DNA from: Escherichia phage AV126
Reading direction: 5' to 3' (one strand)
Sequence record: OR352956.1
Length of the DNA: 64,000 nt
Below, piece after piece: positions 2,416 to 61,306 of the stretch; within the stretch, counting starts at the first letter, position 1, and every line of letters starts with the position of its first letter. The notes beneath the pieces were generated by a model that worked only from the letters and a program-made list of their open reading frames with translations, was not told where the DNA came from and did not search any database. A program made the position numbers and the translations under genes.

Positions 2416-2663
2416 GATCTTCCTCCTGTGCGGAAAGCGCGTTTAGTAATGTTGGACATAATGATTAAATCTTGTAAAGTCATATCTGGGAACTGTTGTT
2501 CTAAAACTCCCTCAACAGCCCCTATAATATCTGATAATTCCACAAGTTGCATTATTTTGCAATCCTGTTCAACAGCATCAAAAAGTTCTTCTACTTCCTC
2601 TTTAATCTTTTCTATGCTGCCATAAGGTTGTTTCTTAATGTCTGTTATGTGATACCCCGCCAT
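2412..2663 (-). CDS. hypothetical protein (83 aa)
   Basis: ORF overlapping neighbours by 4 nt (ATGA coupling). Confidence 0.5.
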   Translation of the reverse strand: MAGYHITDIKKQPYGSIEKIKEEVEELFDAVEQDCKIMQLVELSDIIGAVEGVLEQQFPDMTLQDLIIMSNITKRAFRTGGRS

Positions 2664-4256
2664 TTAACGATCCTCTCTGATTTGATTAATCTTACGAGCA
2701 AGGGCAGCTATAAGCTTATCTTCTTCAGATACAGGAGCCGTGCTCTTACCTAAACGATGCATGTCTAAAATCTCTTGAACAGTCCGGTTCCATTGCAGAC
2801 ATTTAATACAACGTGTATGTGCAACATACAGAAGATTTCGTTCTGATTCTTCAAGACCTACCCACTCACCCTTCTTATCATAATTAGAAGGGAAGTCATT
2901 TGCAACAATAACCTGATCCCATTCCAAACCTTTTGATTTGTGGGCTGTAGTTAAAGTAACTTTAGCCGTTGGAGAGTTACGGTGCATACGTAAAGTGTAT
3001 GCAATATTATTAGCTTTACCAGAAACAACGATGTTTAAAAGTCGTTTTGCATCAGGATCTGATTCTGCACACTCTACAAATTCTTCCCAAGAAGTGTAAG
3101 GGAGAACTGTCTCATGCTTAACTTTGTCCAAATCACCTCTACGTAAAGCATTAACACTATCAACCATAGAAATGAAATCTTTGGTATCTACGTTAATAAT
3201 AATCTCTTCTCCGTTAGCGATTCGGTCCATAGCTTCGAGCAACAAAGTCAAATTCTTACGGAAAATAATAGTGTAAGGTTTACTATAATCTACCACATCA
3301 GAATGAAAACTTCCAGTGACAGTATCATAACCTTTGCCTACCAACGGATGCTTCAGAGGTGAGCGATCAGAAAGGATCGCATTAGCAATGTCCGCAACTT
3401 TAGGACCAAAGCGAAAACAAGCTGTCAGAGGCAACTCAACCCCATATGTAGCTGTTTGCTTCATCATGTTCTGGCTTCCACGGAACTGATAAATACTCTG
3501 AAATTCATCACCCACAACAACAATACGTTTAGCCGATTTAGCATTGCGAAGGATAGACAGGAATGCAGGGTTAACATCCTGGAATTCATCTCCAAAAATA
3601 ATATCGTATCCTAAGTCTTCTTTGCTCAATTCAAAGAGTTTCACATAGGTGTCATGAGTCATAATGGTTTCTGATTTAGGATCAATACGCTCACGCCAAA
3701 GTTGCTTCGCATATTTAACAACTTCATTAATAAGTTTTTGTTCGTTGATGTTTTTACGTTTTAAGTCTGACATGTGCACTTTAGGAAAATGTTTATGTCC
3801 GATATGTTCATCGTCAGAAAACTCATATTTAGCTAAAGTTTGTTTTACCATTAACCCGATCATTGCACGAGTCAGTAGCACTTTACCATTCTTATCGATC
3901 AAGTTCTGAATCTTGAATTTCTTGGCAATCTCACTACCAGTGCCAGCTACGTTAACATATTGACCTTCTGGACGAGATAATTTGTGTCGAAGGTTTTGTG
4001 GAAGACGCTGGTAACAGATAGAATGTAGCGTTCGGCACATAACATTGGGCGGCATTTTACGTCGAGCTTCCTCTGCCATACTTTTGTTAAATGCTAAGTA
4101 TAGAATACTATCATTTGTGCCATTAGCCAACATATACAGCGTTGACGTTTTACCTGATCCAGATTTAGCTTGAATTGTAACGAAACGATTTTCTTGATAC
4201 CCACTTTCAATAGCGTATTGTTCATCGGTAGGTGTAAAACTCAATTGTGTAGACAC
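2664..4256 (-). CDS. UvrD/Rep-like superfamily-1 DNA helicase (530 aa)
   Basis: SF1 motifs in order: AKSGSGKT (Walker A), GDEFQD (motif II), VVGDEFQSIYQFRG (III), TAHKSKGLEWD (V), YVAHTR (VI). Confidence 0.75.
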   Translation of the reverse strand: MSTQLSFTPTDEQYAIESGYQENRFVTIQAKSGSGKTSTLYMLANGTNDSILYLAFNKSMAEEARRKMPPNVMCRTLHSICYQRLPQNLRHKLSRPEGQYVNVAGTGSEIAKKFKIQNLIDKNGKVLLTRAMIGLMVKQTLAKYEFSDDEHIGHKHFPKVHMSDLKRKNINEQKLINEVVKYAKQLWRERIDPKSETIMTHDTYVKLFELSKEDLGYDIIFGDEFQDVNPAFLSILRNAKSAKRIVVVGDEFQSIYQFRGSQNMMKQTATYGVELPLTACFRFGPKVADIANAILSDRSPLKHPLVGKGYDTVTGSFHSDVVDYSKPYTIIFRKNLTLLLEAMDRIANGEEIIINVDTKDFISMVDSVNALRRGDLDKVKHETVLPYTSWEEFVECAESDPDAKRLLNIVVSGKANNIAYTLRMHRNSPTAKVTLTTAHKSKGLEWDQVIVANDFPSNYDKKGEWVGLEESERNLLYVAHTRCIKCLQWNRTVQEILDMHRLGKSTAPVSEEDKLIAALARKINQIREDR

Positions 4257-5260: not shown

Positions 5261-5623
5261 TTAACCTAAACACATACGTGCGATCAGACCCTGGATGAGT
5301 TTATCTGCTTCTTCACGATCATAGTCGGTATCTTCTATACCACCATCTTCGTCACGATAAACTTTACCTTCCAGGTACCCAGCATCGATCAAACCAATAA
5401 TCAAATCAAACTGCCAGCAAGAGTTACCGAAAGGGCGTTTTCCACTGAAACTGTCTTCTTCTTCCCAAAGTGTAGAGAGCAGTCGTCTGAAATATTCACG
5501 CACAGTAACAGTTCCAAGATCATCGTCTTCAAAAACAACATCTAAAGCATCTGGTTCAGCTTTCTCTACAACAGGCACATAACGTTGACCATTAATAACA
5601 ACATCTACAATCGTTTCTCTCAT
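5261..5623 (-). CDS. hypothetical protein (120 aa)
   Basis: ORF; 4-nt overlap with downstream gene. Confidence 0.55.
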   Translation of the reverse strand: MRETIVDVVINGQRYVPVVEKAEPDALDVVFEDDDLGTVTVREYFRRLLSTLWEEEDSFSGKRPFGNSCWQFDLIIGLIDAGYLEGKVYRDEDGGIEDTDYDREEADKLIQGLIARMCLG

Positions 5624-5982
5624 TTTTCCTCCTTCTTGTATTCTAAGAACATGTCAACTTCATAAGCTGTCCGTTCATCAAATTTGCTAGGATCTACTAA
5701 AATAAAAAGTTGTTTATTTATATCTTGAAACTCTTTTACTACAATGTAAAGGTGTTTCTTACAAGAGAAGCCTGTTGCTTGATAAGCATCACCCCAATCA
5801 TCCACACCTTTTAATGTTTCTACATACTTACATTTTATTTTATCTTTACCGTCTTGGTAAAGTGCTTCACCTCCGAACCATGTGAAGAATTTAGTGCGAT
5901 CTGCCCCAACCTTAAAGCCGTCACGAGCAAAAACACCAGCAGAGGCTAATAACAGCAAGGCAAACAGCACTTTTCTCATCAC
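5620..5982 (-). CDS. hypothetical secreted protein (120 aa)
   Basis: N-terminal signal-peptide-like MMRKVLFALLLLASAGVFA. Confidence 0.55.
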   Translation of the reverse strand: MMRKVLFALLLLASAGVFARDGFKVGADRTKFFTWFGGEALYQDGKDKIKCKYVETLKGVDDWGDAYQATGFSCKKHLYIVVKEFQDINKQLFILVDPSKFDERTAYEVDMFLEYKKEEK

Positions 5983-6287
5983 ATCTCCTCGTCGGACTTC
6001 AAGGCTTTAGAGAATACTACATTAAACATTTCACCGCAACCATTATTAACATAATACATGATGTAATTATCATCTTCGTCTACAGGCGCACGATACTCCA
6101 GTTCATAACTATACAAATTAGAATTACTTGTGCAACCTTGTGGATACCAAAAGTAAAGTTCACCACAAGATTCTACCCATTTAAGACCAGTCCGATCTTC
6201 AAATACTAATGTAGATGGATTTTCTGAATCTTTTACAGCTTCTTCGTAATACTGGTGCACCGTAACTGCTAATGATAATGTACTCAT
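5979..6287 (-). CDS. hypothetical protein (about 102 aa)
   Basis: ORF; ATG at 6287 preceded by GGAGG (ORF track starts at in-frame GTG 6290). Confidence 0.5.
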   Translation of the reverse strand: MSTLSLAVTVHQYYEEAVKDSENPSTLVFEDRTGLKWVESCGELYFWYPQGCTSNSNLYSYELEYRAPVDEDDNYIMYYVNNGCGEMFNVVFSKALKSDEEM

Positions 6288-6460
6288 CACGCCTCCAAAT
6301 AGTGTTTACAAATGACAAAACGCCATGTTTGTTTGTAGTAGTCTCTTTTTTCAAGAGCCTCTTTGTAAGAGGGTATACGTTGCGACAGAAGCGTCCATTC
6401 ACAATCTGCACCCATTCTTCCATAAAGCGCGTAACGGATGTTACTTTGTTTATCTCCCAT
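6287..6460 (-). CDS. hypothetical small protein (57 aa)
   Basis: ATG at 6460 with AAGGAGG SD 5 nt upstream; TGA overlaps next start; in a gap the ORF track leaves to an overlapping out-of-frame ORF. Confidence 0.35.
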   Translation of the reverse strand: MGDKQSNIRYALYGRMGADCEWTLLSQRIPSYKEALEKRDYYKQTWRFVICKHYLEA

Positions 6461-6503
6461 AAATGCCTCCTTAATCTTGTTTACAAGTATACCCTCTAAT
6501 TAG

Positions 6504-6701
6504 TTACACTTTTTCCCAAGTACCAAAAGCACAGGAAGGGTAGATTCCAACTTGAGGGTTTCCGTTATCATCTTTGAAAGTAAAACTGTTGTTGTCTTTA
6601 TCAAGAACTGTAGAATAAATCTTACCAACAGTAACGCAGTTGGAAGCTTGACCCAGTTCAGTGAGAGTAAGACATTTCATTTTCTGTTTCTTTGTAGCCA
6701 T
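6504..6701 (-). CDS. hypothetical protein (65 aa)
   Basis: ORF in gene-dense minus block. Confidence 0.45.
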   Translation of the reverse strand: MATKKQKMKCLTLTELGQASNCVTVGKIYSTVLDKDNNSFTFKDDNGNPQVGIYPSCAFGTWEKV

Positions 6702-6783
6702 TTATAAAATCTCCTTAGTAAGTGAATCTTTATTCTACACAAAGAGCTTTGCACATGTCAAGTAACTCTTTGTCAGATTAGTC

Positions 6784-7053
6784 TTAATGATTAGTGATGT
6801 TGATGACAATCTTAGTTTCAACCTTAGCCCAACAGTAGTCTGCTTCATTAAAACGACTAGTCACAATGTATTCTCCTGCACGAGAACCTGTTAAGCACAC
6901 TGCACCTGTATCTGTAGCTAAGTAGTAGTCCCGTTCTTGTTCACTTACTTCTGAATCGTAGTAGTAGAAAACAGACATAGGTTCAATTTCATCTAAACGA
7001 TATAATTTTGGAACAGGGGATTTCTCGATAAACTCGATAGAAGTCTTACTCAT
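6784..7053 (-). CDS. hypothetical protein (89 aa)
   Basis: ORF; 4-nt overlap with upstream gene. Confidence 0.5.
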   Translation of the reverse strand: MSKTSIEFIEKSPVPKLYRLDEIEPMSVFYYYDSEVSEQERDYYLATDTGAVCLTGSRAGEYIVTSRFNEADYCWAKVETKIVINITNH

Positions 7054-11310: not shown

Positions 11311-11667
11311 ATGAAAAAATTAATCTTAGCCACATTGCTGGCTACCGTAAGCTTCACCACTTACGCTCAAAAATTTGTAGCAGTTAAAACGGATATTGGT
11401 AAAGATGTTGTGATCACAGGCAACAAGTTTTACTATACACCTGGGAATGGTGTTCTAGAAGAGTGCAAAGATGTTGAGGCATATACAGGAAAAGAAGATA
11501 ACACGGAACGTCCTTTTTATTCGATTATAGCTACTTGCAAAAATGAAATAGTAGCTATTAAACAATACAAAGATGCCCCTGGAGGAGAATACTTATTAGT
11601 CAAGAATATTAAGAGTGAAAAAACTGCAAAGTTTACAGTAATTATTTTAAAAGGAGAAACGTTCTAA
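11311..11667 (+). CDS. hypothetical secreted protein (118 aa)
   Basis: ATG at 11311 after GGAGGGAAG; signal-peptide-like MKKLILATLLATVSFTTYA. Confidence 0.55.
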   Translation: MKKLILATLLATVSFTTYAQKFVAVKTDIGKDVVITGNKFYYTPGNGVLEECKDVEAYTGKEDNTERPFYSIIATCKNEIVAIKQYKDAPGGEYLLVKNIKSEKTAKFTVIILKGETF

Positions 11668-12806
11668 TGAAATACACTATTTTTGGAGATGTAGCGGTTG
11701 TAAATAAGGAATATGGCGTTGAAGCTAATAAACTTCCTGCTGGAGTTTGGGTTGTCAACTGCGATCCGCACGGTAACTACTCTTTAGTGCGTGGCGAAAG
11801 TTTCTCTCTTCCGAACACTCTTTATGGGGAAACTAAAGACCGCGCCGCACATGTTATTAAAACATTTGCTCGTCGTAGTAAAGAAGGTAAAAATACTGGG
11901 GTGTTACTGACAGGGACAAAAGGCAGTGGTAAGACGATGTTAGCTAAACTGATTAGCATGTCTCTAATGTCCACAGAAGGTTTAGGTATTCCAACCATTT
12001 TGGTTACACAGCCTTACACAGATGCTGGCTTCTTAGAATTTATGAGTAAAATTACAGATCGTGCTGTTGTTTTATTTGACGAATTTGATAAAGTGTACGC
12101 TAAGAAAGAAGATCAGGAAGCACTGTTGACCTTGTTGGATGGAACAGGAAGTGGGAATAAACTTTACATCCTCACTAAAAATAGTGGTTATATCTCGGAA
12201 TATTTTGTAAACCGTCCTAGTCGTATCTACTACAGTTTCAATTACGATAAACTGTCTAGTGAAACTATGTTAGATTACTTGGATAAGAACTTGGTAAATA
12301 AAAAGCACGTAGATAACTTCCAACGTTTATGGGATGTTAGCACAGAGTTGTCTTTCGATGTTATTCAAGGCATTGTAGAAGAATTGAATTTCTATCCAAA
12401 AATGACTTTTAAAGAATGTCTTGAAATGATGGGTATTTCTTTAGGGAACGATGCTAAATGGAATGTGGCTTCTATCGTAGCTAATGGCAAAACCTTGAAG
12501 GTGAATTGGATCAATAACTGGCACGACTTCACCCCTACTAAGTTTTTGTCGGGTGCTTGTTCCCTGAACATCTATCTACAAAGTTTGAAAGATGATGAAG
12601 TGGAAGCAATGGAAACCAACAGTTATGTTATCCTGGATGAAGATGGTGATCCACATATTGATCTATGTGCAACGGCTGATGGTCTAACTTGTGATCTGAT
12701 TGAAGGTGGTAAGATTCTGGTTATGAGCACTACACCAGGAAACACTTTGCGAGTGGTGCTGGAGCCTGTAACACAACGTTCCACTACACTTGGTAGCGTG
12801 TTCTAA
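11667..12806 (+). CDS. P-loop NTPase (AAA-like ATPase, 379 aa)
   Basis: Walker A GTKGSGKTMLAK and Walker B-like VVLFDEFDK. Confidence 0.6.
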   Translation: MKYTIFGDVAVVNKEYGVEANKLPAGVWVVNCDPHGNYSLVRGESFSLPNTLYGETKDRAAHVIKTFARRSKEGKNTGVLLTGTKGSGKTMLAKLISMSLMSTEGLGIPTILVTQPYTDAGFLEFMSKITDRAVVLFDEFDKVYAKKEDQEALLTLLDGTGSGNKLYILTKNSGYISEYFVNRPSRIYYSFNYDKLSSETMLDYLDKNLVNKKHVDNFQRLWDVSTELSFDVIQGIVEELNFYPKMTFKECLEMMGISLGNDAKWNVASIVANGKTLKVNWINNWHDFTPTKFLSGACSLNIYLQSLKDDEVEAMETNSYVILDEDGDPHIDLCATADGLTCDLIEGGKILVMSTTPGNTLRVVLEPVTQRSTTLGSVF

Positions 12807-45012: not shown

Positions 45013-45813
45013 TTATTTGTTTAAATGGTCTTCAACCATTTTGATAAAGCCTTCATCACTGAAGACTGTTCCTGCTTTCTCTCGGTAGACAAGCACTCCA
45101 CGTTCTTCGTAGAGAGTTTGTTCTACAAAATTCAAACCTGGGTTAACTACTACCATCTTAACCCCAATATTCAGGGCAGGGAAGAGTTCCCAGTTGAAGT
45201 TGATTACTTGGTTAGAGCAGCCTACAACGATAACCATATCTTGTGATGTTAGTTGATCCAGTTTGTGATACATGTCTGTGTAGAGTGGTGCATTCTCACC
45301 AAAAAACACCACATTAGGCTTCACATATTTGTAATCGTCTACATCAATAGCTGCGTAACCCACATCTTTGATAATTTTGTTATCAACAACAACTTCTGGC
45401 AAGAAGCCATGAACGTGCAATATTTCTTCTCTATCGATTCCAGCGCGTTCTAATAGATCGTCAACGTTAGTAGTAATGTTAATAATCCTTTCTGCACCGT
45501 ATTTTTCGAACCATTCTCCAATCTGAAGATGTGCTGGATTCGGGTCAACTTTCTCTAATTCCACGCGACGTTTATTGTAGAAGTCGTGAGTTTTACGGTA
45601 GAGGTTATATCCTTCCACATCTAAGCCACCCATAGCATCAGGAATACCCTGTTCTTGCTGATAACCGTCACGGAAGTTGAAAATGTCACAGACTTCTGTT
45701 AAATCGTATTCATCCCATAATGCCTTTCCAGAATCTGTTTCTGTGCGAAATGTTTGGATTCCGCTGTCAGCACTTAGTCCCGCACCACTAATAAAATATA
45801 CACGTCTTGGCAT
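45013..45813 (-). CDS. Sir2-family NAD-dependent protein (sirtuin-like, 266 aa)
   Basis: GAGLSADSGIQTFR (Rossmann NAD motif), TTNVDDLLERAG...HVHG (catalytic His), PNVVFFGE, IVVGCSNQV; no CxxC zinc-ribbon pairs. Confidence 0.75.
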   Translation of the reverse strand: MPRRVYFISGAGLSADSGIQTFRTETDSGKALWDEYDLTEVCDIFNFRDGYQQEQGIPDAMGGLDVEGYNLYRKTHDFYNKRRVELEKVDPNPAHLQIGEWFEKYGAERIINITTNVDDLLERAGIDREEILHVHGFLPEVVVDNKIIKDVGYAAIDVDDYKYVKPNVVFFGENAPLYTDMYHKLDQLTSQDMVIVVGCSNQVINFNWELFPALNIGVKMVVVNPGLNFVEQTLYEERGVLVYREKAGTVFSDEGFIKMVEDHLNK

Positions 45814-46286
45814 TATTCGTCCTCCTCAAATGGATCATAAGAATCATATTCGTAAGTATCATCTTCTGAAAATTCTACTTCGAAATAAATATCAAACTCT
45901 GCAAACAGACGTAGGATGTTAGACATGCTATAATAATTATCGTAGGCAGATTCAGCTTCATAGTAAACATAAAGCAAATGGTTAGCCTTATCATCTTCCA
46001 AATATTTCCCGTCTGCATACGCATAGTCTGCATATGCTTTACCTGCATCTTCTACAAGAGAACGATCAAGCAGAGTAGGAAATGGTTTCTCTTTTTCTTT
46101 TAGTTTGCTCACCAACCAATGTGCAATATCATTCCATTCTGCATCCATACCACTAAAGCAACTTGCTTCTTCTCCAAAAGAAGCTTCTCCTAAATCGCCA
46201 CTAATACGAACAACATTAGATGAATTATAGCCACACGTTTCACAATCAGAGTAACTATTATGCACATTGACATTTACTTGAAACAT
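45813..46286 (-). CDS. hypothetical acidic protein (157 aa)
   Basis: ORF; start overlaps Sir2 stop. Confidence 0.5.
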   Translation of the reverse strand: MFQVNVNVHNSYSDCETCGYNSSNVVRISGDLGEASFGEEASCFSGMDAEWNDIAHWLVSKLKEKEKPFPTLLDRSLVEDAGKAYADYAYADGKYLEDDKANHLLYVYYEAESAYDNYYSMSNILRLFAEFDIYFEVEFSEDDTYEYDSYDPFEEDE

Positions 46287-52818: not shown

Positions 52819-53409
52819 TCAAATTATTAACGAAACCGCATGACTAAATTTTGGTTCAGATATAACCTCTGCTACAGTCACATATGTATCGTGCAGCCAA
52901 AAAGATTCTACTCTACAAACACAAATACCGTTGATAATGAAATCTACACAGGCTTTATTATTTTCGCACACTTGTTGACTATAAACAACCCCTAAAGAGT
53001 CATAAAGTGATCTAACTGTTGCTACCATTTCATCTGTTTCATCTTCGTGCGAAACAAAGAAAACGAATACAGACAAGTTGTTAGCGAAAGTACTGCTATT
53101 CTCTACTTCAACCGACTTACAAGGTAAAAAGGAGTAATATTTACCGTTAGGTATCAATTTCGCCTCAACCTGGTTAAGTATGCTTTGAGATGGTTTTGTT
53201 ACATAAAAAAGATTTTCTGTTGGGTTTTCAACATTACTCCTTACTATGCAACGAGTGGGGTTCGAAGGATCAAAAACATGATCAAAATCGACACACACAG
53301 GTAGGTTAACAACTTTAAACTTTTTGCTAAGAATGCTTACTGCTGTAAAAATCAAACCAGCATTTATTTTGCCAGTGAAAGTTGAACGCATAACTACTCC
53401 TCGGATCAT
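52819..53409 (-). CDS. hypothetical protein (196 aa)
   Basis: ORF in co-oriented block. Confidence 0.5.
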   Translation of the reverse strand: MIRGVVMRSTFTGKINAGLIFTAVSILSKKFKVVNLPVCVDFDHVFDPSNPTRCIVRSNVENPTENLFYVTKPSQSILNQVEAKLIPNGKYYSFLPCKSVEVENSSTFANNLSVFVFFVSHEDETDEMVATVRSLYDSLGVVYSQQVCENNKACVDFIINGICVCRVESFWLHDTYVTVAEVISEPKFSHAVSLII

Positions 53410-53600
53410 TCTACCAAAGAGAATTCCGCCTCTTCCAGGTAGATTACAGACCTTGTTGCATGATATTTAACGCTCCAGAAATTACCTTCGCGCCGTAAAA
53501 GTATCTCATTCACATCAAGATTGCTTAGAAAAACCATATAACTTAAAGCTTGTTGACGCGTTGAGAATTGTTTCTCTAAAAGTTCTTCTCCGCTCTGCAT
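53406..53600 (-). CDS. hypothetical protein (64 aa)
   Basis: ORF; AGGAGGGA SD. Confidence 0.45.
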   Translation of the reverse strand: MQSGEELLEKQFSTRQQALSYMVFLSNLDVNEILLRREGNFWSVKYHATRSVIYLEEAEFSLVE

Positions 53601-53646
53601 AATCCCTCCTTAAAAATACTCCCTCCGAGAAGGGAGTATAAGTATA

Positions 53647-53850
53647 TCACGTAGTTGTTATGTTGCCTTCTTGGATACTAGAATCCACTTCTGCAAACAT
53701 ATCTTCTGCACTGTAATTATTTCCAGTCCAGCGTGATAAAAGGATAGCACCAATCTCTTTTGCATGAGATTCAGACTCCGCATAAACGTTAGTCCCAGTG
53801 TCACCTTTCTTCTTTTCATGTGCATAAATGCAGTAATAATTGTAAGCCAT
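53647..53850 (-). CDS. hypothetical protein (67 aa)
   Basis: ORF in co-oriented block. Confidence 0.45.
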   Translation of the reverse strand: MAYNYYCIYAHEKKKGDTGTNVYAESESHAKEIGAILLSRWTGNNYSAEDMFAEVDSSIQEGNITTT

Positions 53851-54086
53851 TAGTCTTCCCAGTCATTGTCCTCGGTAGAGTGAACCAAAGCTCGCACGAT
53901 ACCACCGTAATCTACTGCCTGATTTGCAGCATGTTCGGCATAAACTTCAATGGCTTTTTTGAAGAAAAGAGCAGTAGCTGCTTCAATATTATCCATTTCG
54001 CCGTCTACATCAGTAGAAAGTGAAAGGTTGAGGCTTTCATCTACTTCATCAAAATCAATAGCCACTGTCATAATTAGTTTACCCAT
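53850..54086 (-). CDS. hypothetical acidic protein (78 aa)
   Basis: ORF; AAGGAGTG SD. Confidence 0.5.
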   Translation of the reverse strand: MGKLIMTVAIDFDEVDESLNLSLSTDVDGEMDNIEAATALFFKKAIEVYAEHAANQAVDYGGIVRALVHSTEDNDWED

Positions 54087-54098
54087 AGTTCACACTCC

Positions 54099-54608
54099 TT
54101 AAACAAAATAAAATGGTTGAGAGAGGCCCAAACGATTCTTTGGGTCGTATACATACCAAGCGTATGCTGTCTTATCTGTTCCACCTGCAACAAACGAAGG
54201 CCGTTCTGAAAGAACTATAAGGTTTGTCGGTGGATTCTTTTGATGGAACTCTCGTCGTTTCTTTGACTCCAAGAAGCCCAACCGAAGAAGATAAATACAA
54301 ACATCCGCCTCTTTTAAGCTCTTTTCCAAGAACTCCATTGCTAACTTAAATGGAGGGTTTGTGATTATAATGTCGGGACGATTTTCCCACTCGTGACTAA
54401 AATAATCCTTACCTTCTTCAAGTTCACAATATTCTGAACCTTCAGGAAAATGGCGATAAATCGCTTCAGCTTCACCTCTGCAAGGTTCTGCAAAAACCCA
54501 ACCTTCTTCCTTTAGATTTTTGAAATCTATAACACTAAACAAACTGTTGATTGCTTTTTGCGGTGTCGGATAATAATCGCTCGTTGGGCGATCATAATCT
54601 AATGCCAT
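54099..54608 (-). CDS. small methyltransferase-like protein with NPPF motif (169 aa)
   Basis: DIIITNPPF matches motif IV (N/D-PP-F/Y) of amino-methyltransferases; short. Confidence 0.45.
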   Translation of the reverse strand: MALDYDRPTSDYYPTPQKAINSLFSVIDFKNLKEEGWVFAEPCRGEAEAIYRHFPEGSEYCELEEGKDYFSHEWENRPDIIITNPPFKLAMEFLEKSLKEADVCIYLLRLGFLESKKRREFHQKNPPTNLIVLSERPSFVAGGTDKTAYAWYVYDPKNRLGLSQPFYFV

Positions 54609-55026
54609 CTAAAATCTCCTCTTTTGTAATATTATCCAACTCTTTAAAGGATGAAATCTCGTTTAATAATCCTATTTGATCAGCCTCTAGAGGATAAGTG
54701 TTTTTATCTGTTTTTCTAGACAGAATATCTTCAACAAACTTATCAATAGCCAAAGAAGAATCATAAAATTTTAAAAGTTGGTAATCCATAGGAGATATTT
54801 TGTCATCTCTTAGAAATATTTCTAACATGTTTTCAGGAGTATCGTGGTTTAGTTTATGTTCACCAAAAATATTAACTTCGTAAACATCTTTGCCAAACCA
54901 ACGTTTTTTCTTTTCAACAGTATAGGTTTTTGCCACCAGACCATCTAAACAGTTTCTTGCCCTCTTACATGTTTGACGGTAAGAGTGGATAGCGCCTTCA
55001 ACAAACTTAGCAGGAACTTGTAACAT
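54592..55026 (-). CDS. hypothetical protein (144 aa)
   Basis: ORF preceded by hairpin and AGGAGA SD. Confidence 0.5.
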   Translation of the reverse strand: MLQVPAKFVEGAIHSYRQTCKRARNCLDGLVAKTYTVEKKKRWFGKDVYEVNIFGEHKLNHDTPENMLEIFLRDDKISPMDYQLLKFYDSSLAIDKFVEDILSRKTDKNTYPLEADQIGLLNEISSFKELDNITKEEILDGIRL

Positions 55027-55046
55027 TATTAATCTCCTATGTTTAA

Positions 55047-55068
55047 GAAATGCCCCCGAAGGGGCAGT
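55047..55068 (-). terminator. intercistronic GC hairpin with UUCG loop (minus strand)
   Basis: Minus sense CUGCCCCUUCGGGGGCAUUUCUU between HslV-like gene and next ORF. Confidence 0.4.
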
Positions 55069-55071
55069 TTG

Positions 55072-55764
55072 TTAAATAGCGGTTCCTTCGAAATCCGCCA
55101 CATTTACGAGATTAATATTTTCAGATTTAGAAGTCAAGTTGTTTTCTGCAACAGATTTTTCTTCAGTATCCGCCTCGTTACCTGCCACGTTACGAGGTTC
55201 TTCTTCACCGTAGGGATTACCGAATTTCAAAAGATTGATCAATTCTTCTTTGGAGAAGTTTTCTAAATCATCGTCTGTTAATTCAATAATCTCATCTTGT
55301 TCTTCAACAAATGTTTCACCACCAGAAAAAGCATCTCGCTTTTTAGCTACTTCCATAGCCTGTTCTGGTGTTGCCCCTGCATCAAGAGCAGCTAAAGCAA
55401 AGTCTGACCCGCTTCCTACCGCATAATATTCTTCATCAATCGGATATGCACGTGTTGGGTTGTTACCTTCGTGCAGGAAAATACGTCCGTCAGGATGAAC
55501 AACAAGTGCAATAAACTCTTCATCTTCTTTATCTGGATCAGAGTGAATCATCAAACCAGGGACAGCATCACGTGCTGCTTCGCACTGTAGGTTTTGTTCA
55601 AACCATTGAAAGAAAGAAAGCACGGAGGTCAGACGACCAGCACCACCTACAAGGTAATCTCCAATTTTTCGGACCTTTTTGAAATTAATAGAATCTACAC
55701 GTCCGCCAAAAGTTACCTTACCATCACTCAAAATCTTATTCTTGGTTGCAATAATTGTCGTCAC
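55072..55764 (-). CDS. HslV-like Ntn-hydrolase peptidase with acidic C-terminal extension (230 aa)
   Basis: MTTIIATKN (Thr after Met as in HslV TTIVSV), KKVRKIGDYLVGGAG, YYAVGSGSDFALAAL align with E. coli HslV blocks; ~60-aa Glu/Asp-rich tail. Confidence 0.65.
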   Translation of the reverse strand: MTTIIATKNKILSDGKVTFGGRVDSINFKKVRKIGDYLVGGAGRLTSVLSFFQWFEQNLQCEAARDAVPGLMIHSDPDKEDEEFIALVVHPDGRIFLHEGNNPTRAYPIDEEYYAVGSGSDFALAALDAGATPEQAMEVAKKRDAFSGGETFVEEQDEIIELTDDDLENFSKEELINLLKFGNPYGEEEPRNVAGNEADTEEKSVAENNLTSKSENINLVNVADFEGTAI

Positions 55765-56267
55765 TATTCTTCCTCCTCTGTTAATGTTTTAAGAACCGCT
55801 TTCCCGCCATTCACATATTTGCAGATGTATTCTATCGCACGTAGTGTCTCTTTGTCAACAAAAATTTGATCAGACGTTGCGAGCGGGTTATTAAGAAGAT
55901 CACTGCAATCACGAACAAGCAGTGCTTTCTTATTAAACAAATTACTTAAGAACAGTAACTTCGCCTCTTCTTCTGTTATGTGCAGAAGGCTAGGATCGGA
56001 GCCAGCTATTCCTATTATACAATCAAACAAGCTTTCTTTACTATCAGAAAGTTCTTGAAAATGGTTTAAAAGCCAATCTTCTCCTAGACACCAACATTTA
56101 AACATTTCCAGTTTATCTCGGAGGGTCATATTCTCTAAAGTAAGAGCAATCTCTTTTTCAATATGGTTTACACAAATTTGACGAAATTCGTTAGGTTTTA
56201 CGAGTCCCGTTTGATAGCACTCATCTATACCGCTTCTTCCGATAGCTATTGTTGCTACACCCATCAA
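55764..56267 (-). CDS. hypothetical protein (167 aa)
   Basis: ORF; AGGAGGATTG SD. Confidence 0.5.
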   Translation of the reverse strand: MMGVATIAIGRSGIDECYQTGLVKPNEFRQICVNHIEKEIALTLENMTLRDKLEMFKCWCLGEDWLLNHFQELSDSKESLFDCIIGIAGSDPSLLHITEEEAKLLFLSNLFNKKALLVRDCSDLLNNPLATSDQIFVDKETLRAIEYICKYVNGGKAVLKTLTEEEE

Positions 56268-56299
56268 TCCTCCTTATAAATGGCTTCCCTGCCACGTTA

Positions 56300-57058
56300 T
56301 TAAATAAACACTTCAGTAATCAGTTTAGACAAACGTCCACGTTTATTATCGTCCGTTGTCAGTTCAACATATCCAATAAAATCTACAATTGGCTCACGAA
56401 CACCTTCTTCATTTTCTGGATATAAAAGTTCCAAAATTTGATGCAGACCATTGCTACGTTTTTTAATTGCATATGTCTGGCGAACATCACCTAATACAAT
56501 AACATGCGTATTAATACCTGCACGTTCAATAAGAAGTTTAAGTGTTTCTGTTGACATAAGTTGTGCTTCGTCAATAATGACAATTGTATTATCCAGGGTA
56601 GCTCCCAACAAATAGTTAGGAATATTCAATTCGATCTTACCTGATCCAATATCGTTTTCCAATTTGTTGGCTGTCATGAATTGCTGGAAAATACGTTTTG
56701 TAGATTCATAGTGTGCTGCTAGTTTATCTGTTTTATCCCCAGACAAGAAACCAATCTGGTCATCTCCGACTTCAGTAGGGTTTTTGATAAAAAGTAGTTT
56801 ACGGAAGTCTCCTGAACGAAGCATCTGCAAAGCTTTCCATAAAGCAACAGAGGTTTTACCAGTCCCTGCCGGAGCATTTACAACAGTCAGATCATTCCAA
56901 ATCATGCTTTGAACAATCTTATTTTGGTCCCCTTCAGGCATAAATTCATCTAAACGGTAATCGTCATTACCTACCGCTTTTGCTGCATAACGGCTTTCAA
57001 TCTTTGCTGAATTAGCCAGTTTCTGCCGTTGTGTTTTAGCTGCGGTTTTATTTCCCAT
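56300..57058 (-). CDS. phoH: PhoH-like ATPase (about 252 aa)
   Basis: ATG 57058 after AAGGAG; VNAPAGTGKTSVAL (Walker A), VIIDEAQLMS (Walker B). Confidence 0.8.
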   Translation of the reverse strand: MGNKTAAKTQRQKLANSAKIESRYAAKAVGNDDYRLDEFMPEGDQNKIVQSMIWNDLTVVNAPAGTGKTSVALWKALQMLRSGDFRKLLFIKNPTEVGDDQIGFLSGDKTDKLAAHYESTKRIFQQFMTANKLENDIGSGKIELNIPNYLLGATLDNTIVIIDEAQLMSTETLKLLIERAGINTHVIVLGDVRQTYAIKKRSNGLHQILELLYPENEEGVREPIVDFIGYVELTTDDNKRGRLSKLITEVFI

Positions 57059-57065
57059 AGTAGCA

Positions 57066-57090
57066 CTCCTTTTAGAAGGGGCCGAAGCCC
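57066..57090 (-). terminator. intercistronic GC hairpin with UUCG loop (minus strand)
   Basis: Minus sense AAAGGGGCUUCGGCCCCUUCU between lysozyme stop and phoH SD. Confidence 0.4.
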
Positions 57091-57095
57091 CTTTA

Positions 57096-57596
57096 TTAGT
57101 TGTAAGCATCTAAAGTTCCAGAAGTCAGAACTTTAATTACTCGTTCAGCACGGTTTGGCGTCTGGCTATACCATCGGCTTTTACGCATGTTTTTACCTGC
57201 TTGAGTATAATATGCATTGCTGATTAAAGTCAAGCTATTTTGAAACCCTTCAGCACCTTTTAACCCCAACTGGAAAACCATGTTGATTATTCCCAATTTA
57301 CGAGTATCACTCACCTTATCATAGATTGGTGATAAGATAGCACTGTTTTTTATGTCTCTCTTCACTTTTGCAACATCGTCAGCAAAGATTTGACGGGCTT
57401 CTTTTTCTGTGATAACTCCATTGGTCTTACGACCAAGGAGATTATCTAAGATTTGAATAGCCTTTGCTTTATCTTTTATTTTAGTCAGAAGGTGTCCTAT
57501 GCCGACTGTCCAATAACCAAGATGGTCTTGATAAACAGTAAGCTTCAGTCCTTCATCGACTCGTAGCATATCAAACTCATCTACTACTTTAGCCAT
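57096..57596 (-). CDS. e: T4-type lysozyme (endolysin, 166 aa)
   Basis: Colinear with T4 lysozyme: ...RVDEGLKLTVYQDHLGYWTVGIGHLLTK...GVITEKEA...INMVFQLG...SRWYSQTPNRAERVIKVL..GTLDAYN. Confidence 0.9.
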   Translation of the reverse strand: MAKVVDEFDMLRVDEGLKLTVYQDHLGYWTVGIGHLLTKIKDKAKAIQILDNLLGRKTNGVITEKEARQIFADDVAKVKRDIKNSAILSPIYDKVSDTRKLGIINMVFQLGLKGAEGFQNSLTLISNAYYTQAGKNMRKSRWYSQTPNRAERVIKVLTSGTLDAYN

Positions 57597-57603
57597 TTAC
57601 TTC

Positions 57604-57753
57604 CTATTCGTCGTCTCCTACTCCGTGATCCAACTCGTTAAACAATAGATGTTCTGGAGAAGTTTCACGTTTTGGTTTCGTTTTCTTTATGTTGGACTTC
57701 AGCTCATTTGCCAAAGCACGAGAAAAGATCTTACGTTTCTGTTTACTTTTCAT
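57604..57753 (-). CDS. hypothetical small basic protein (49 aa)
   Basis: ATG 57753 after GGAG; fills gap between glutaredoxin and lysozyme; below ORF-track cut-off. Confidence 0.35.
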   Translation of the reverse strand: MKSKQKRKIFSRALANELKSNIKKTKPKRETSPEHLLFNELDHGVGDDE

Positions 57754-57758
57754 AATTG

Positions 57759-58019
57759 TTACTCCGCAATTTGAGCCATGAGATCACGCAGTTCGGTAAA
57801 ACCGCCTACGTATGTTACCTCCCCGTTCACTTCAGACAGAATTTGTGGAAATGTGCGTGGAGGAACTCCGGTAAGATCAACAACTGTTTTAGTCATTGAT
57901 TCTAAATCGTAGTCTTGGTCAAGACTTAAATATTCAAACTGTTTATTGCGCATGGTTAATAGTTGTTTTGACATTTCACAAAATTGACAGTTAGGTTTAC
58001 CAAAAATTACAAATTCCAT
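57759..58019 (-). CDS. glutaredoxin-like thioredoxin (NrdC/NrdH-like, 86 aa)
   Basis: N-terminal active site GKPNCQFC (CxxC) in glutaredoxin-fold-sized protein; GGAG SD. Confidence 0.7.
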   Translation of the reverse strand: MEFVIFGKPNCQFCEMSKQLLTMRNKQFEYLSLDQDYDLESMTKTVVDLTGVPPRTFPQILSEVNGEVTYVGGFTELRDLMAQIAE

Positions 58020-58861
58020 TACCTCTCCTTATTAAGTAATACTGCTAAAGACTGTTCAATACCTTTATTTAAATCTGATTTTGTAAGATAGTGACTGGTT
58101 ACTAGTTGTGACTTCACCGGACGTGCTGCTGGAGCATTATAGGTTGAAGCTGATACCGCCGATATCTTAACAGGTTCTGGCATCTGTGTCAAGATCTTTT
58201 CCGCAAACTCCGCCCAAGAAATAAGATGGCTTCCTGCAAAATGGTAAGTCTTAACAGATCTTGACCAACCTGTTTTTAATACTTCAAAAATAGCTTCTGC
58301 TAAATCTGGGGCATATGTTGGACAAGAGAACTGATCAGCAACAATAATAAAATCACGTTGTCCATCATTATAGCGAGACAACATGGTTTTTAGAAAGTTA
58401 TTTCCAAATTCGCTATATACCGAGGCTGTTCGAATAATATATGCATTTGGGTTAACTCCTCGCACCATTTTTTCACCAAGTTCTTTCGTATACCCATAAT
58501 TGTTTATTGGGTTAGGTGTAGTATCTTCAAAAATAGGATGAGAATAATTAAAAATATAGTCTGTAGAAATATGCACAAAATCAATTTTAAGTTTGCTGCA
58601 CACTGCCGCAATATTTGCAGGTCCATACGCATTAACAGCCAAAGCAGTAGCAAATTCATGTTCTGCTTTATCTACCGCCGTATAAGCGGCGCAATTAATA
58701 ACACCATCTACATAATCTTCAACAATAGCGTTTCGCACAGCTTCAAAATTTGTAATATCTACACGTTCTTTAGGATAAATTAAAGATACATTTGCAGGGG
58801 CAACTTTACGTAAAGCTTGTCCCAGTTGTCCATTACCACCCAATACCAAATATGTTAGCAT
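58019..58861 (-). CDS. rmlD: dTDP-4-dehydrorhamnose reductase (RmlD, 280 aa)
   Basis: N-terminal Rossmann LVLGGNGQLGQAL; size and operon position after rmlC. Confidence 0.75.
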   Translation of the reverse strand: MLTYLVLGGNGQLGQALRKVAPANVSLIYPKERVDITNFEAVRNAIVEDYVDGVINCAAYTAVDKAEHEFATALAVNAYGPANIAAVCSKLKIDFVHISTDYIFNYSHPIFEDTTPNPINNYGYTKELGEKMVRGVNPNAYIIRTASVYSEFGNNFLKTMLSRYNDGQRDFIIVADQFSCPTYAPDLAEAIFEVLKTGWSRSVKTYHFAGSHLISWAEFAEKILTQMPEPVKISAVSASTYNAPAARPVKSQLVTSHYLTKSDLNKGIEQSLAVLLNKER

Positions 58862-59421
58862 ACACCCTCGCTACGTAACTGTTGAAAAGATTTAGCCATT
58901 GCATCTTTTGTTGATAGGATAGGTTTAAAACCTTCATCAAAAATCATATCGAAGCCCCAATCGATCCCTATATCAGGATCATCCCAACGTAAACTTTGTT
59001 CACTAGAAGAGTCGTATGGAGTTGTGCATTTGTATTCAAAGATAGCATCCATACTCAAAACTATAAAACCATGTGCCAAACCAGGTGGAAGCCAAAACTG
59101 CGTATGGTGTCGTGCACGAAGAACAACACCGTCCCAAGCACCGTAAGTAGGACTATCTTTACGTAAGTCTACAGCGAAATCCAATACTTCACCACTTACA
59201 CAACGAACAAGCTTACCTTGCGGATTATTTGTTTGAAAGTGCATTCCTCGCAAAACACCGAAGTTTGATTTAGACATGTTATCTTGAACGAAAGTTTGTC
59301 TACCAATAATATCTTCGTATTTTTGTTCATTATATGTTTCTAAAAAGAAACCACGGTCATCTTTATAAACGTCTGGTTTGATAATTACCGCACCTTCAAT
59401 TTTTGTCTTTTCTACTTTCAT
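58855..59421 (-). CDS. rmlC: dTDP-4-dehydrorhamnose 3,5-epimerase (RmlC, about 188 aa)
   Basis: ATG 59421 after GGAGAGAAA; cupin-type RmlC sequence (GVLRGMHFQ...); ORF-track 5' extension overlaps rmlA. Confidence 0.75.
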
Positions 59422-60296
59422 TTTCTCTCCGCTAATTTGAGTAGGTATTGCCCGTACTCTGTTTTCTTCAGTGAGTTTCCATGATATACCAAAGTCTCTA
59501 AAGAAATCCACCCTTTTTTGAAAGCAATTTCTTCCAGGCACGCAATCTTCAACCCTTGACGGTTCTCAATAGTCTGCACGAATTGACCAGCTTCCATCAG
59601 ACTGGCGTGTGTTCCTGTGTCAAGCCAAGTAAATCCTCGTCCGAGAACTTCCACTTGTAACTTCCTGTCTTCGAGGTAGCTGCGATTGATATCTGTGATC
59701 TCCAGTTCTCCCCGCGCGGAAGGGGTTACTTCTAATGCACGTTCAACAACAGAGTTATCATAGAAATACAAACCTGTGACAGCATAATCTGATTTAGGAT
59801 TTTCAGGTTTCTCTTCAATAGAAATAGCTTGACGATTACTCCCAAATTCAACCACACCGAATCGTTCAGGATCTTTCACCAAATACCCGAAGATACAAGC
59901 TCCGCCACAAACATCTACCATCTCACTGGCGTTAATCAGTAGTTTACCAAAGCTTTGTCCGAAGAATAGGTTGTCACCTAAAATAAGAGCAACAGAGTCT
60001 TCTCCGATAAAATCTTTACCGATGATGAAAGCGTCCGCAAGACCTCGTGGCTCGGATTGGATTGCGTAAGTGAGTTTTATCCCAAACATAGACCCATCTC
60101 CGAGAAGATACTCAAAGTCTTCCTGATCGCCTGGTGTGGTGATGATTAAGATATCCTTAATGTCAGCCAACATCAATACCGATAAAGGGTAGTAGATCAT
60201 GGGTTTGTCATACACAGGGAGCAATTGCTTGCTCACACTGCGTGTTACCGGATGAAGGCGGGTTCCACTTCCTCCCGCCAAAATAATACCTTTCAT
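59418..60296 (-). CDS. rmlA: glucose-1-phosphate thymidylyltransferase (RmlA, about 292 aa)
   Basis: ATG 60296 after GGAG; [18 protein letters not shown]...VEFGSN...VTGLYFYD typical of RmlA. Confidence 0.85.
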
Positions 60297-60304
60297 AGCC
60301 CTCC

Positions 60305-61297
60305 TTAAATCTTCCCACTCCACCATTGAGGGTTGTTTAAGTACCATTCAATCGTTGAGTAGAGATCTTGTTCAAATGTAGAGTTTGCACTCCAACCCAG
60401 TTCAGACTCTATTTTAGAAGGATTGATTTCATAACGCAAGTCATGTCCTTTACGATCTTCAACAAAAGTTATCAAGTTGGAAGAAGGGTAGGTTCCTGCT
60501 TCTGGATGTACAGCATCCATGTAGTCACAAACCATATAGATGATCTCCATATTGGTTTTGGGATTACGTGTTCCAACATTATACGTTTGACCTGGTTCTC
60601 CACCTGTTGCCACTTGAAGAATAGCTCGCGCATGATCCTCAACAAAAAGCCAGTCTCGCACCTGATCGCCTTTACCATACACCGGAATCTCTTTATTCGT
60701 CAAGATACTTGTGATGATTTTTGGGATCAGCTTTTCTGGATGTTGATAAGGTCCAAAGTTATTGGAGCAGTTGGTTATCACAACAGGTAAACCGTAGGTA
60801 CGGTACCAAGCTTTCACAAGATGGTCAGATGCTGCCTTAGACGCACTGTACGGGCTTGAAGGGGCATAAGCTGTCTCTTCGGTAAAGGGAACGCCAGAGT
60901 CTGCCATATCGCCGTACACTTCGTCTGTGGAGACGTGTACGAACATCTTCAGTTTATTTTTTGGGAGGAGCCTTGCAGCTTCCAATAAATTGTATGTGCC
61001 AATAATATTGGAGTCGATGAAAACTCGTGGATTCTTGATAGAATTATCCACATGACTCTCTGCCGCTAAGTGAATGATGAAATCGGGATTGCACTCTACT
61101 ACTAAACTTTTGACCTGGGTTTCGTTTGCCAAATCTGTTATGCTTAGTTTAACGTGAGTGATATCGCCTACATTCTCAATATCTGCTGCATAGCCCATCT
61201 TATCAACGACAAAAACTTCGTTATTGGGATCTTGACAAAGAGAGCGCACCACGGCACTCCCAATAAAACCAAGACCACCTGTTACCAGATAGCGCAT
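60305..61297 (-). CDS. rmlB: dTDP-glucose 4,6-dehydratase (RmlB, 330 aa)
   Basis: [16 protein letters not shown], ...HLAAESHVD..., YSASKAA (YxxxK) SDR motifs. Confidence 0.85.
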
Positions 61298-61306
61298 CAG
61301 TTCTCC

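Follow-up and report, generated by a model that had tools for sequence, protein, structure and literature searches.

What does a phage do with a peptidase of the HslV type when no gene for the unfoldase HslU is found in its neighbourhood? This question is raised by a gene of Escherichia phage AV126 (sequence record OR352956.1), which is located on the stretch of 64,000 nucleotides that was analysed here as a whole (the window).

55072..55764, minus strand: coding sequence for a 230-aa proteasome-like protein (PPH-like, 'peptidase HslV family'); GTG start, stop codon included; PHROG 1040, PF00227

A preliminary description of the locus had considered the product to be an HslV-like peptidase. 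This stands as far as the superfamily is concerned: the protein is an N-terminal nucleophile (Ntn) peptidase with a threonine following the initiator methionine. It does not stand for HslV proper, because the protein scores more than 100 bits below the cutoffs of the HslV models, has no predicted helix H2, and has acidic residues in place of the basic pore cluster. The preliminary description was unaware that the gene has an annotation and that the family has been described before. Its coordinates are exact, and the strings quoted there (MTTIIATKN, LVGGAG, and AVGSGSDFALAAL) are each found in the translation, but the strand had been left out. The open reading frame (ORF) of 230 codons is on the minus strand, with the GTG at 55764-55762; the plus-strand frame at 55072..55764 has stops throughout. 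RefSeq entry NC_052659 gp049 has identical boundaries. The 5 kb surrounding the gene match numerous Escherichia and Klebsiella phages at 99% identity; these belong to the genus Phapecoctavirus (phAPEC8-like myoviruses, ~150 kb, subfamily Stephanstirmvirinae).

The protein passes the gathering threshold of the Pfam family Proteasome (PF00227; 25.6 bits vs. 22.4). Among PDB sequences, phmmer detected only HslV and 20S beta subunits (E = 5e-9 for HslV from T. maritima and ~3e-5 for that from E. coli). An AlphaFold2 model, computed from a 59-sequence alignment, has a mean predicted local distance difference test (pLDDT) score of 85, with values above 90 across most of residues 1-156, and shows the alpha-beta-beta-alpha sandwich that is common to 20S beta subunits and HslV. 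Foldseek comparison of this model to the PDB returned HslV, BPH, and 20S beta structures with E-values of 1e-10 to 1e-8 and a target-normalised TM-score of ~0.66, with HslV on top (~1e-10). Also, 47 viral predicted structures match the model at E ≤ 0.001. The similarity to HslV is above chance by each of these three methods, and the profile and structure searches which the preliminary description had proposed as a check point to an Ntn fold rather than to another one.

55297..55764, minus strand: catalytic Ntn core, residues 1-156 (delimited by AlphaFold2 pLDDT, the HslV/BPH/20S beta folds, and invariant columns)

The predicted nucleophile is Thr2 (codon 55759-55761), once the methionine is removed, and the active site is predicted to be completed by Asp14, Lys30, Gly41-Ala42-Gly43, and Gly117-Ser118-Gly119. 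Thr2, Thr3, Ile4, Asp14, Lys30, and Gly117-Ser118-Gly119 are invariant in 59 of 59 relatives with sequence identities down to 26%, and Gly41-Ala42-Gly43 is kept in at least 90% of them. In the alignment to E. coli HslV, Thr2, Asp14, Lys30, and Ser118 correspond to Thr1, Asp17, Lys33, and Ser124, and Gly41-Ala42-Gly43 corresponds to the oxyanion loop; in the superfamily, the oxyanion hole is assigned to Gly47. The earlier proposal that the threonine directly after the methionine is the catalytic nucleophile is thus well supported. Because nearly all of the 150 best cluster representatives begin with 'MTT[IV]', the peptidase has no propeptide, and its nucleophile would become exposed through ordinary methionine removal. 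Judged from sequence and model, the peptidase has the Ntn fold of the proteasome-beta/HslV superfamily and a complete catalytic set.

By the same kind of evidence, it is not HslV in the strict sense. The NCBIfam HslV models NF003964 and TIGR03692 give scores of 32.2 and 31.4 bits with cutoffs of 137 and 157.75, whereas E. coli HslV, used as a control in the same run, obtained 303.8 and 288.2 bits. In the model, one long helix (residues 45-67) leads into a coil of 17 residues at the place of helix H2 in HslV.

55513..55563, minus strand: residues 68-84 (VPGLMIHSDPDKEDEEF), coil in place of helix H2 and the pore loop (from DSSP of the model, alignment, and family counts)

The H1-H4 helix pattern is common to proteasome homologues with the exception of connectase and PPH/RPC, and the latter have no H2 (PMC8665760). 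In addition, the first hairpin is 4 residues shorter than that of HslV. The pore entrance of HslV carries a basic cluster (Arg86, Arg89, and Lys90), and the pore loop is acidic in BPH, the betaproteobacterial proteasome homologue, which has no partner unfoldase (PMC5777263). The three basic HslV residues align with Lys79, Glu82, and Glu83 of the phage peptidase, and the latter two positions are occupied by Asp or Glu in 57 of 59 and 50 of 59 family members, respectively. HslU contacts HslV through the H1/H2 face; Lys28 of HslV, which we take to be a salt-bridge partner of the HslU C-terminus, is replaced by Ser in the phage peptidase and by Ser, Gln, Thr, or Asp across the family. The HslV residues which are reported to accommodate the HslU C-terminus (Phe54, Phe57, Lys80, and Gln114; PMC6429459) correspond to Leu, Phe, Ile, and Arg.

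The preliminary description had suggested that the phage protein might hijack a host unfoldase. Assembled into HslV-like dodecamers, which consist of two hexameric rings, on E. coli HslU or another host AAA+ protein, it would redirect ATP-dependent degradation to substrates chosen by the phage. HslV structures are indeed the best matches by sequence and fold, the E. coli host encodes HslU, and some positions of the HslU pocket are retained (F57 = F, R35 = R, E61 = E). Nevertheless, we consider such hijacking unlikely. H2, which is part of the H1/H2 face, is predicted to be absent, and the exchanges at positions 28, 54, 80, and 114 (K/F/K/Q to S/L/I/R) further alter the predicted HslU-facing surface. 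The basic pore cluster has turned acidic, and the scores are more than 100 bits under the HslV equivalog cutoffs. Moreover, family members from phages with many different hosts consistently retain the differences from HslV.

The hslU gene is normally located in one operon with hslV. An HslU of its own was not detected for the phage: tblastn with E. coli HslU gave no match, neither in the window nor in the genome of the reference phage (145 kb, searched as three loci), the best E-value being 3.7. The earlier statement that no HslU-like gene is nearby thus extends to a complete genome.

Beyond the core, the peptidase carries a C-terminal tail of 74 aa (residues 157-230) with a net charge of -15 and 27% Asp plus Glu. 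Of the 76 ORFs in the window with 100 aa or more (mean -3.3, sd 5.3), only one has a more acidic C-terminus. HslV of E. coli terminates at residue 176 without such a tail, so that the strongly acidic C-terminus of ~60 aa, described earlier as foreign to HslV, is confirmed. It consists of two parts.

55210..55296, minus strand: residues 157-185, conserved beginning of the tail with two short helices (from pLDDT and column counts)

55075..55209, minus strand: variable, acidic, predicted disordered end of the tail, residues 186-230 (pLDDT 45-56)

The two helices (residues 164-169 and 172-181; pLDDT ~90 over residues 161-180) carry the motif [ST][KR]E[QE]L[LI][ND][LI][LIV], which is preceded by a [TS]xE cap. 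This element is at the position of helix H5 of the proteasome family, which in many family members stabilises ring-ring contacts (PMC8665760). For residues 186-230, sequence identity among relatives is 0.10-0.35, and the net charge stays negative (-8 to -24). More distant members keep the two-helix element and have other C-terminal domains (e.g., ending with KWRLHNA, or Lys-rich and helical), while members of ~140 aa are tail-less. Neither the tail nor the C-terminal domains of the relatives match any Pfam family, and PADLOC and Pfam searches with the peptidase, its neighbours, and the isolated tail found nothing further. This pattern of conservation suggests an architecture of three parts: a catalytic core and a helical connector, both conserved, and an outward module that evolves fast. 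We also considered that the tail might mimic the C-terminal activating peptide of HslU ('DDLENF' vs. 'EDLSRFIL' in HslU). This was rejected, as Leu167 is Ala in 18 of 59 and Phe170 is Leu or Met in 25 of 59 family members, and the motif is internal.

The genomic context is that of an early or metabolic gene. The peptidase is surrounded by genes for glutaredoxin, lysozyme, PhoH, methyltransferases, Sir2, a phosphatase, dTDP-rhamnose enzymes, ribonucleotide reductase (RNR), and ThyX. In the reference genome, it is located at 25.0-25.7 kb, and the head and tail module covers 102-140 kb, with the head genes at 132-140 kb.

A natural knockout seems to exist in phage VEcB (genus Justusliebigvirus). 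Its gp055 (NC_052663; positions 2501-3304 of locus L086) is a 267-aa ORF in which residues 1-112 of PhoH are fused in frame to the last 155 residues of the peptidase. The C-terminus of PhoH, the 167-aa ORF directly upstream of the peptidase (up167, see below), and the Thr/Asp/Lys region of the peptidase are removed, and the flanking gene order confirms the deletion. In the paper on phage BME3, the HslV-family peptidase and PhoH are among the proteins which differ from VEcB. If the VEcB assembly is right, the peptidase gene is probably dispensable for propagation. Such dispensability would speak for an accessory rather than a morphogenetic role. RefSeq still labels VEcB gp055 as 'peptidase HslV family'. 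A second candidate for a natural knockout, P0023 of phage vB_EcoM-Ro121c4YLVW (positions 2072-2764 of locus L090), was ruled out. It is annotated with 159 aa because the annotators began at Met72, but the 230-codon GTG frame is intact. This misassigned start conceals the catalytic threonine.

With a probability of about 0.5, we consider the protein to be an accessory, ring-forming, ATP-independent threonine peptidase of the PPH-like type, in which an acidic pore and a modular tail control substrate access or recruitment. Like HslV and BPH, it would assemble into a ring-shaped, self-compartmentalising oligomer. Its substrates would be peptides or unfolded proteins, the latter probably basic, on which it would act without a dedicated unfoldase and without ATP in the early to middle phase of infection. 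Substrate selection may be aided by the acidic residues that are conserved at the pore position, as has been proposed for BPH. The two conserved helices of the tail may function as H5, either by packing on the core or by stabilising the oligomer, and the fast-evolving acidic disordered end, which is swapped for other domains in relatives, would face outwards and serve in recruitment or gating. The gene would then be a host-modulating accessory, neither essential nor morphogenetic. Its ATP-independent and accessory character is probable.

Several points weigh against this interpretation. The absence of H2 derives from one AlphaFold2 model with pLDDT values of 78-90 in this segment, and the residue mapping near H2 comes from a low-identity alignment that is anchored only by the following conserved strand. 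Oligomer, activity, substrates, and expression timing are inferred. The VEcB deletion is possibly an assembly error; if real, it shows dispensability under laboratory propagation only. The protein may interact with host HslU, ClpX, or the AAA ATPase of the phage. Finally, BPH, the closest unfoldase-less analogue, showed no activity on standard substrates (PMC5777263), so that the term 'ATP-independent protease' is unproven for the class.

A different function might be envisaged from the gene directly upstream of the peptidase gene.

55764..56267, minus strand: up167, 167-aa ORF, PHROG 14834 (unknown function); its stop overlaps the peptidase GTG

55772..55778, minus strand: Shine-Dalgarno sequence GAGGAGG, 7 nt 5' of the peptidase GTG

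The TAG stop codon of up167 overlaps the GTG start of the peptidase (TAGTG), which suggests translational coupling. Together with the GAGGAGG sequence 7 nt upstream, this overlap makes the GTG start well supported. The hslV gene of E. coli K-12 (positions 1458-1988 of locus L003) is likewise annotated with a GTG start followed by Thr-Thr, as in the phage gene. up167 and the peptidase occur together down to 46-48% identity. Two cysteines are among the 28 invariant residues of up167. Its AlphaFold2 model is all-helical (pLDDT 90.5), and neither fold nor sequence comparison returned an informative match to characterised proteins. A functional link between up167 and the peptidase is possible.

The peptidase might accordingly be a specific processing enzyme or a transpeptidase/ligase, possibly monomeric and with few targets, for which up167 could be a substrate or cofactor. 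There is a precedent in the same superfamily, as connectase is a monomeric, highly specific ligase (PMC8665760). The translational coupling and co-occurrence of up167, and its joint deletion in VEcB, fit such a function, and the variable C-terminal modules suggest specific targeting. However, the hallmark of connectase, a two-helix S3/S4 insertion over the active site (PMC8665760), is absent, the first hairpin being even shorter than in HslV. Also, up167 is missing in more distant tail-bearing members from Aeromonas, Vibrio, and Shewanella phages, and its fold is uninformative. We thus regard a processing or ligase function as improbable.

A further possibility is that the phage provides its own unfoldase from a distant locus. 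The P-loop ATPase which had been noted at 11667 indeed exists and belongs to the Pfam AAA family.

11667..12806, plus strand: AAA-family ATPase, 379 aa (29.9 bits vs. Pfam AAA threshold of 21.2); PHROG 2376

It is 99.7% identical to gp137 of the reference phage. Peptidase and ATPase might form an unlinked two-gene ATP-dependent protease, and both occur throughout Stephanstirmvirinae. The ATPase scores above the Pfam threshold, and its best PDB matches are D2 domains of the protein-remodelling AAA proteins Rix7, AFG2, and p97, but these matches are weak (E ~1e-3). In an alignment of low confidence, ILVT is found where unfoldases carry the KYVG pore loop, so that the aromatic-hydrophobic-Gly pattern of pore loop 1 is not seen. 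The two genes are ~43 kb apart, and their phage distributions differ. ATPases of the gp137 type occur in Escherichia, Enterococcus, Bacillus, Staphylococcus, Lactobacillus, and Lactococcus phages; those from Enterococcus, Bacillus, Staphylococcus, and Lactobacillus lack the peptidase. Conversely, the peptidase occurs without such an ATPase in Vibrio, Caulobacter, and Rhizobium phages. Because of these distributions, an obligate pair is unlikely, and a two-gene protease of any kind seems quite unlikely to us. The gp137-type ATPase is also shared with jumbo phages of Xanthomonas, Erwinia, Yersinia, and Agrobacterium.

Nor did any ATPase neighbour track the peptidase in 80 related IMG/VR loci. 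A PhoH-like gene is located 1-5 genes from the peptidase in 27 of these 80 loci, down to ~37% identity. PhoH is an RNA/helicase-type P-loop protein and is not known to be an unfoldase. PhoH as a partner was rejected in favour of inherited synteny, since the whole block is syntenic and the block with PhoH is absent from phiCbK. This block (window ~53400-61300, minus strand) comprises RNR, thioredoxin/glutaredoxin, lysozyme, PhoH, small ORFs, the peptidase, and DNA ligase/invertase/DprA, and it is syntenic in Escherichia Stephanstirmvirinae, Shewanella phage 1/40, and Vibrio phage VnaP (loci L087 and L089). The shared arrangement from RNR to DprA implies a deep common early-gene module. In VnaP, a ClpP-like gene is found ~5 kb downstream of the peptidase. 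A 246-aa family upstream of the peptidase in distant loci was considered as a divergent PhoH, but its sequence looks like that of an endolysin with amidase and peptidoglycan-binding parts.

Within the preferred interpretation of an ATP-independent PPH-like peptidase, the acidic residues permit a more far-reaching proposal, that of a 'baited proteasome'. Basic host proteins that bind DNA or RNA (e.g., nucleoid proteins or defence nucleases) would be caught by the conserved acidic pore together with a crown of fast-evolving, acidic, disordered tails acting as mimics of nucleic acid, and would be passed on to the Thr active sites for ATP-independent degradation. We consider this very unlikely. 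If true, interchangeable C-terminal domains would retarget one protease core to different host proteins, and the phage would have a tool to take over the host or to counter its defence.

A role in virion maturation as prohead protease, also suggested by the preliminary description, is hardly credible. In its favour, a prohead protease is not recognised by sequence in the structural module: gp246, between the portal and capsid genes, resembles a coiled-coil scaffold and is devoid of protease signatures. However, the peptidase gene belongs to the early/nucleotide-metabolism block and is distant from the head genes, VEcB has lost its catalytic N-terminus, distant relatives have the peptidase beside endolysins or unrelated genes rather than head genes, and no prohead protease is known to have an Ntn/proteasome fold.

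Some further features of the window were noted. Directly 3' of the peptidase stop codon, the sequence has the potential to form a hairpin.

55051..55066, minus strand: terminator-like hairpin UGCCCC-UUCG-GGGGCA followed by UUUCUU (z = -2.95 vs. shuffles)

A sigma-70-like promoter match (TTGACA-18-TAGAAT, 11/12) is found at 55829-55858 (minus strand) within the upstream ORF, 65-95 nt 5' of the peptidase start. Taken together, such sites show no enrichment compared to shuffles (17 seen vs. 13.4 +/- 3.1 expected). A 44-bp 'repeat_region' which is annotated within the gene in NC_052659 was not reproduced in the window (seed 12, minimum length 25). The most acidic protein of the window is a 157-aa ORF at 45813-46286 (minus strand) with a net charge of -26, which corresponds to a hypothetical gene beside the Sir2-like gene in the reference phage. 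It has no Pfam or PADLOC match and could be a protein of the DNA-mimic type.

The peptidase has many relatives in phages. An exhaustive profile search of 1.84 billion representatives returned 10,910 matches at E ≤ 0.001, with 61 reaching 1e-30. These 61 are mostly 183-350 aa long and hence bear an extension, while the next tier consists mainly of 137-155-aa proteins. The median BLAST score against this tier is 66 bits for the phage peptidase and 20 bits for E. coli HslV. The family is represented in 287 phage records, including Escherichia, Vibrio, Caulobacter, Aeromonas, and Rhizobium phages, and close homologues are on phage-sized contigs (~140-156 kb). A scan of 185,579 species-representative genomes, which was pattern-limited and used a narrowed alignment, revealed no chromosomal copy of the tail-bearing subfamily. 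It returned one 425-bp contig with 99% identity, which is probably phage contamination, and distant matches with at most 44% identity (at most 30% when full-length). Two Aeromonas phage contigs (L025 and L027, positions 5432-6885) carry two adjoining proteasome-like genes. The first codes for a 183-aa tail-less paralogue that starts with MTCII and has GCG instead of GSG, and the second codes for a 294-aa tail-bearing form which keeps the tail motif as LSKKELINMM. The products of this gene pair might form a hetero-oligomer.

The names given to the gene vary. RefSeq and several GenBank records use 'peptidase HslV family', 'ATP-dependent protease subunit', 'putative 20S proteasome', or 'putative proteasome component', and some records label it 'hypothetical'. 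PHROG 1040, named 'peptidase HslV family', matches with an E-value of 1e-63. Proteasome homologues borne by phages were catalogued by Fuchs, Alva & Lupas in 2021 (PMC8665760), and an HslV without HslU was remarked upon in a Salmonella jumbo phage (PMC7823757). Our literature searches on phage HslV/PPH proteins returned annotation-level mentions only and no experimental study of any phage member. What the present analysis adds is that the protein is not HslV proper, has an acidic pore and a modular tail, is found without a partner ATPase, and has a natural knockout. Proteasome homologues are common in large phages, as illustrated by the 287 phage records and by ~11,000 cluster representatives in metagenomic protein space, and how an HslV-like peptidase works without an unfoldase is a question that stands equally for the bacterial BPH. 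The phage grows on K-12, and its gene, with a clear active site, a separable tail, and probable dispensability, is a convenient model for the substrates of phage proteasome homologues.

How does the peptidase compare to the known systems? HslV (ClpQ; MEROPS T1B) is the best match among solved structures by sequence and fold. It has a core of similar size and shares Thr1, Asp17, Lys33, Ser124, and the Gly-rich oxyanion loop. HslV differs by its hslU partner, helix H2, a basic pore, and the lack of an acidic tail. BPH (PDB 5ovs; PMC5777263), an HslV-derived homo-oligomer, resembles the phage peptidase as an unfoldase-less Thr peptidase with an acidic pore-loop position and is among the top fold matches. 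Unlike the phage protein, it is chromosomally encoded, keeps H2, has a long pore loop, and has no tail, and the sequence similarity between the two is marginal (E ~1). BPH forms tetradecamers which bind epoxomicin but showed no activity on standard substrates (PMC5777263).

RPC (published representative WP_140207863) has a C-terminal extension, as does the phage peptidase, and its structure is unknown (PMC8665760). It is described as occurring exclusively in proteobacterial genomes (PMC8665760), while the tail-bearing subfamily was found only on phage-sized contigs and in phage records. PPH (Proteasome homologue of Phages and their Hosts; published representative WP_042125023.1) also has features in common with the phage peptidase: it belongs to Group I, occurs in tailed phages, starts with Met-Thr without a propeptide, and has the catalytic triad and no H2 (PMC8665760). 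PPH is described as compact, with ~140 residues and no extension (PMC8665760), compared to a core of 156 aa and a tail of 74 aa in the phage peptidase. The nearest relatives beyond its own subfamily have this stated size of PPH; they are deleted in the H2 segment, the length of which is kept in the phage peptidase. Going by the published descriptions of PPH and RPC, we therefore place the peptidase on the PPH/RPC branch, as a tail-bearing, phage-borne form.

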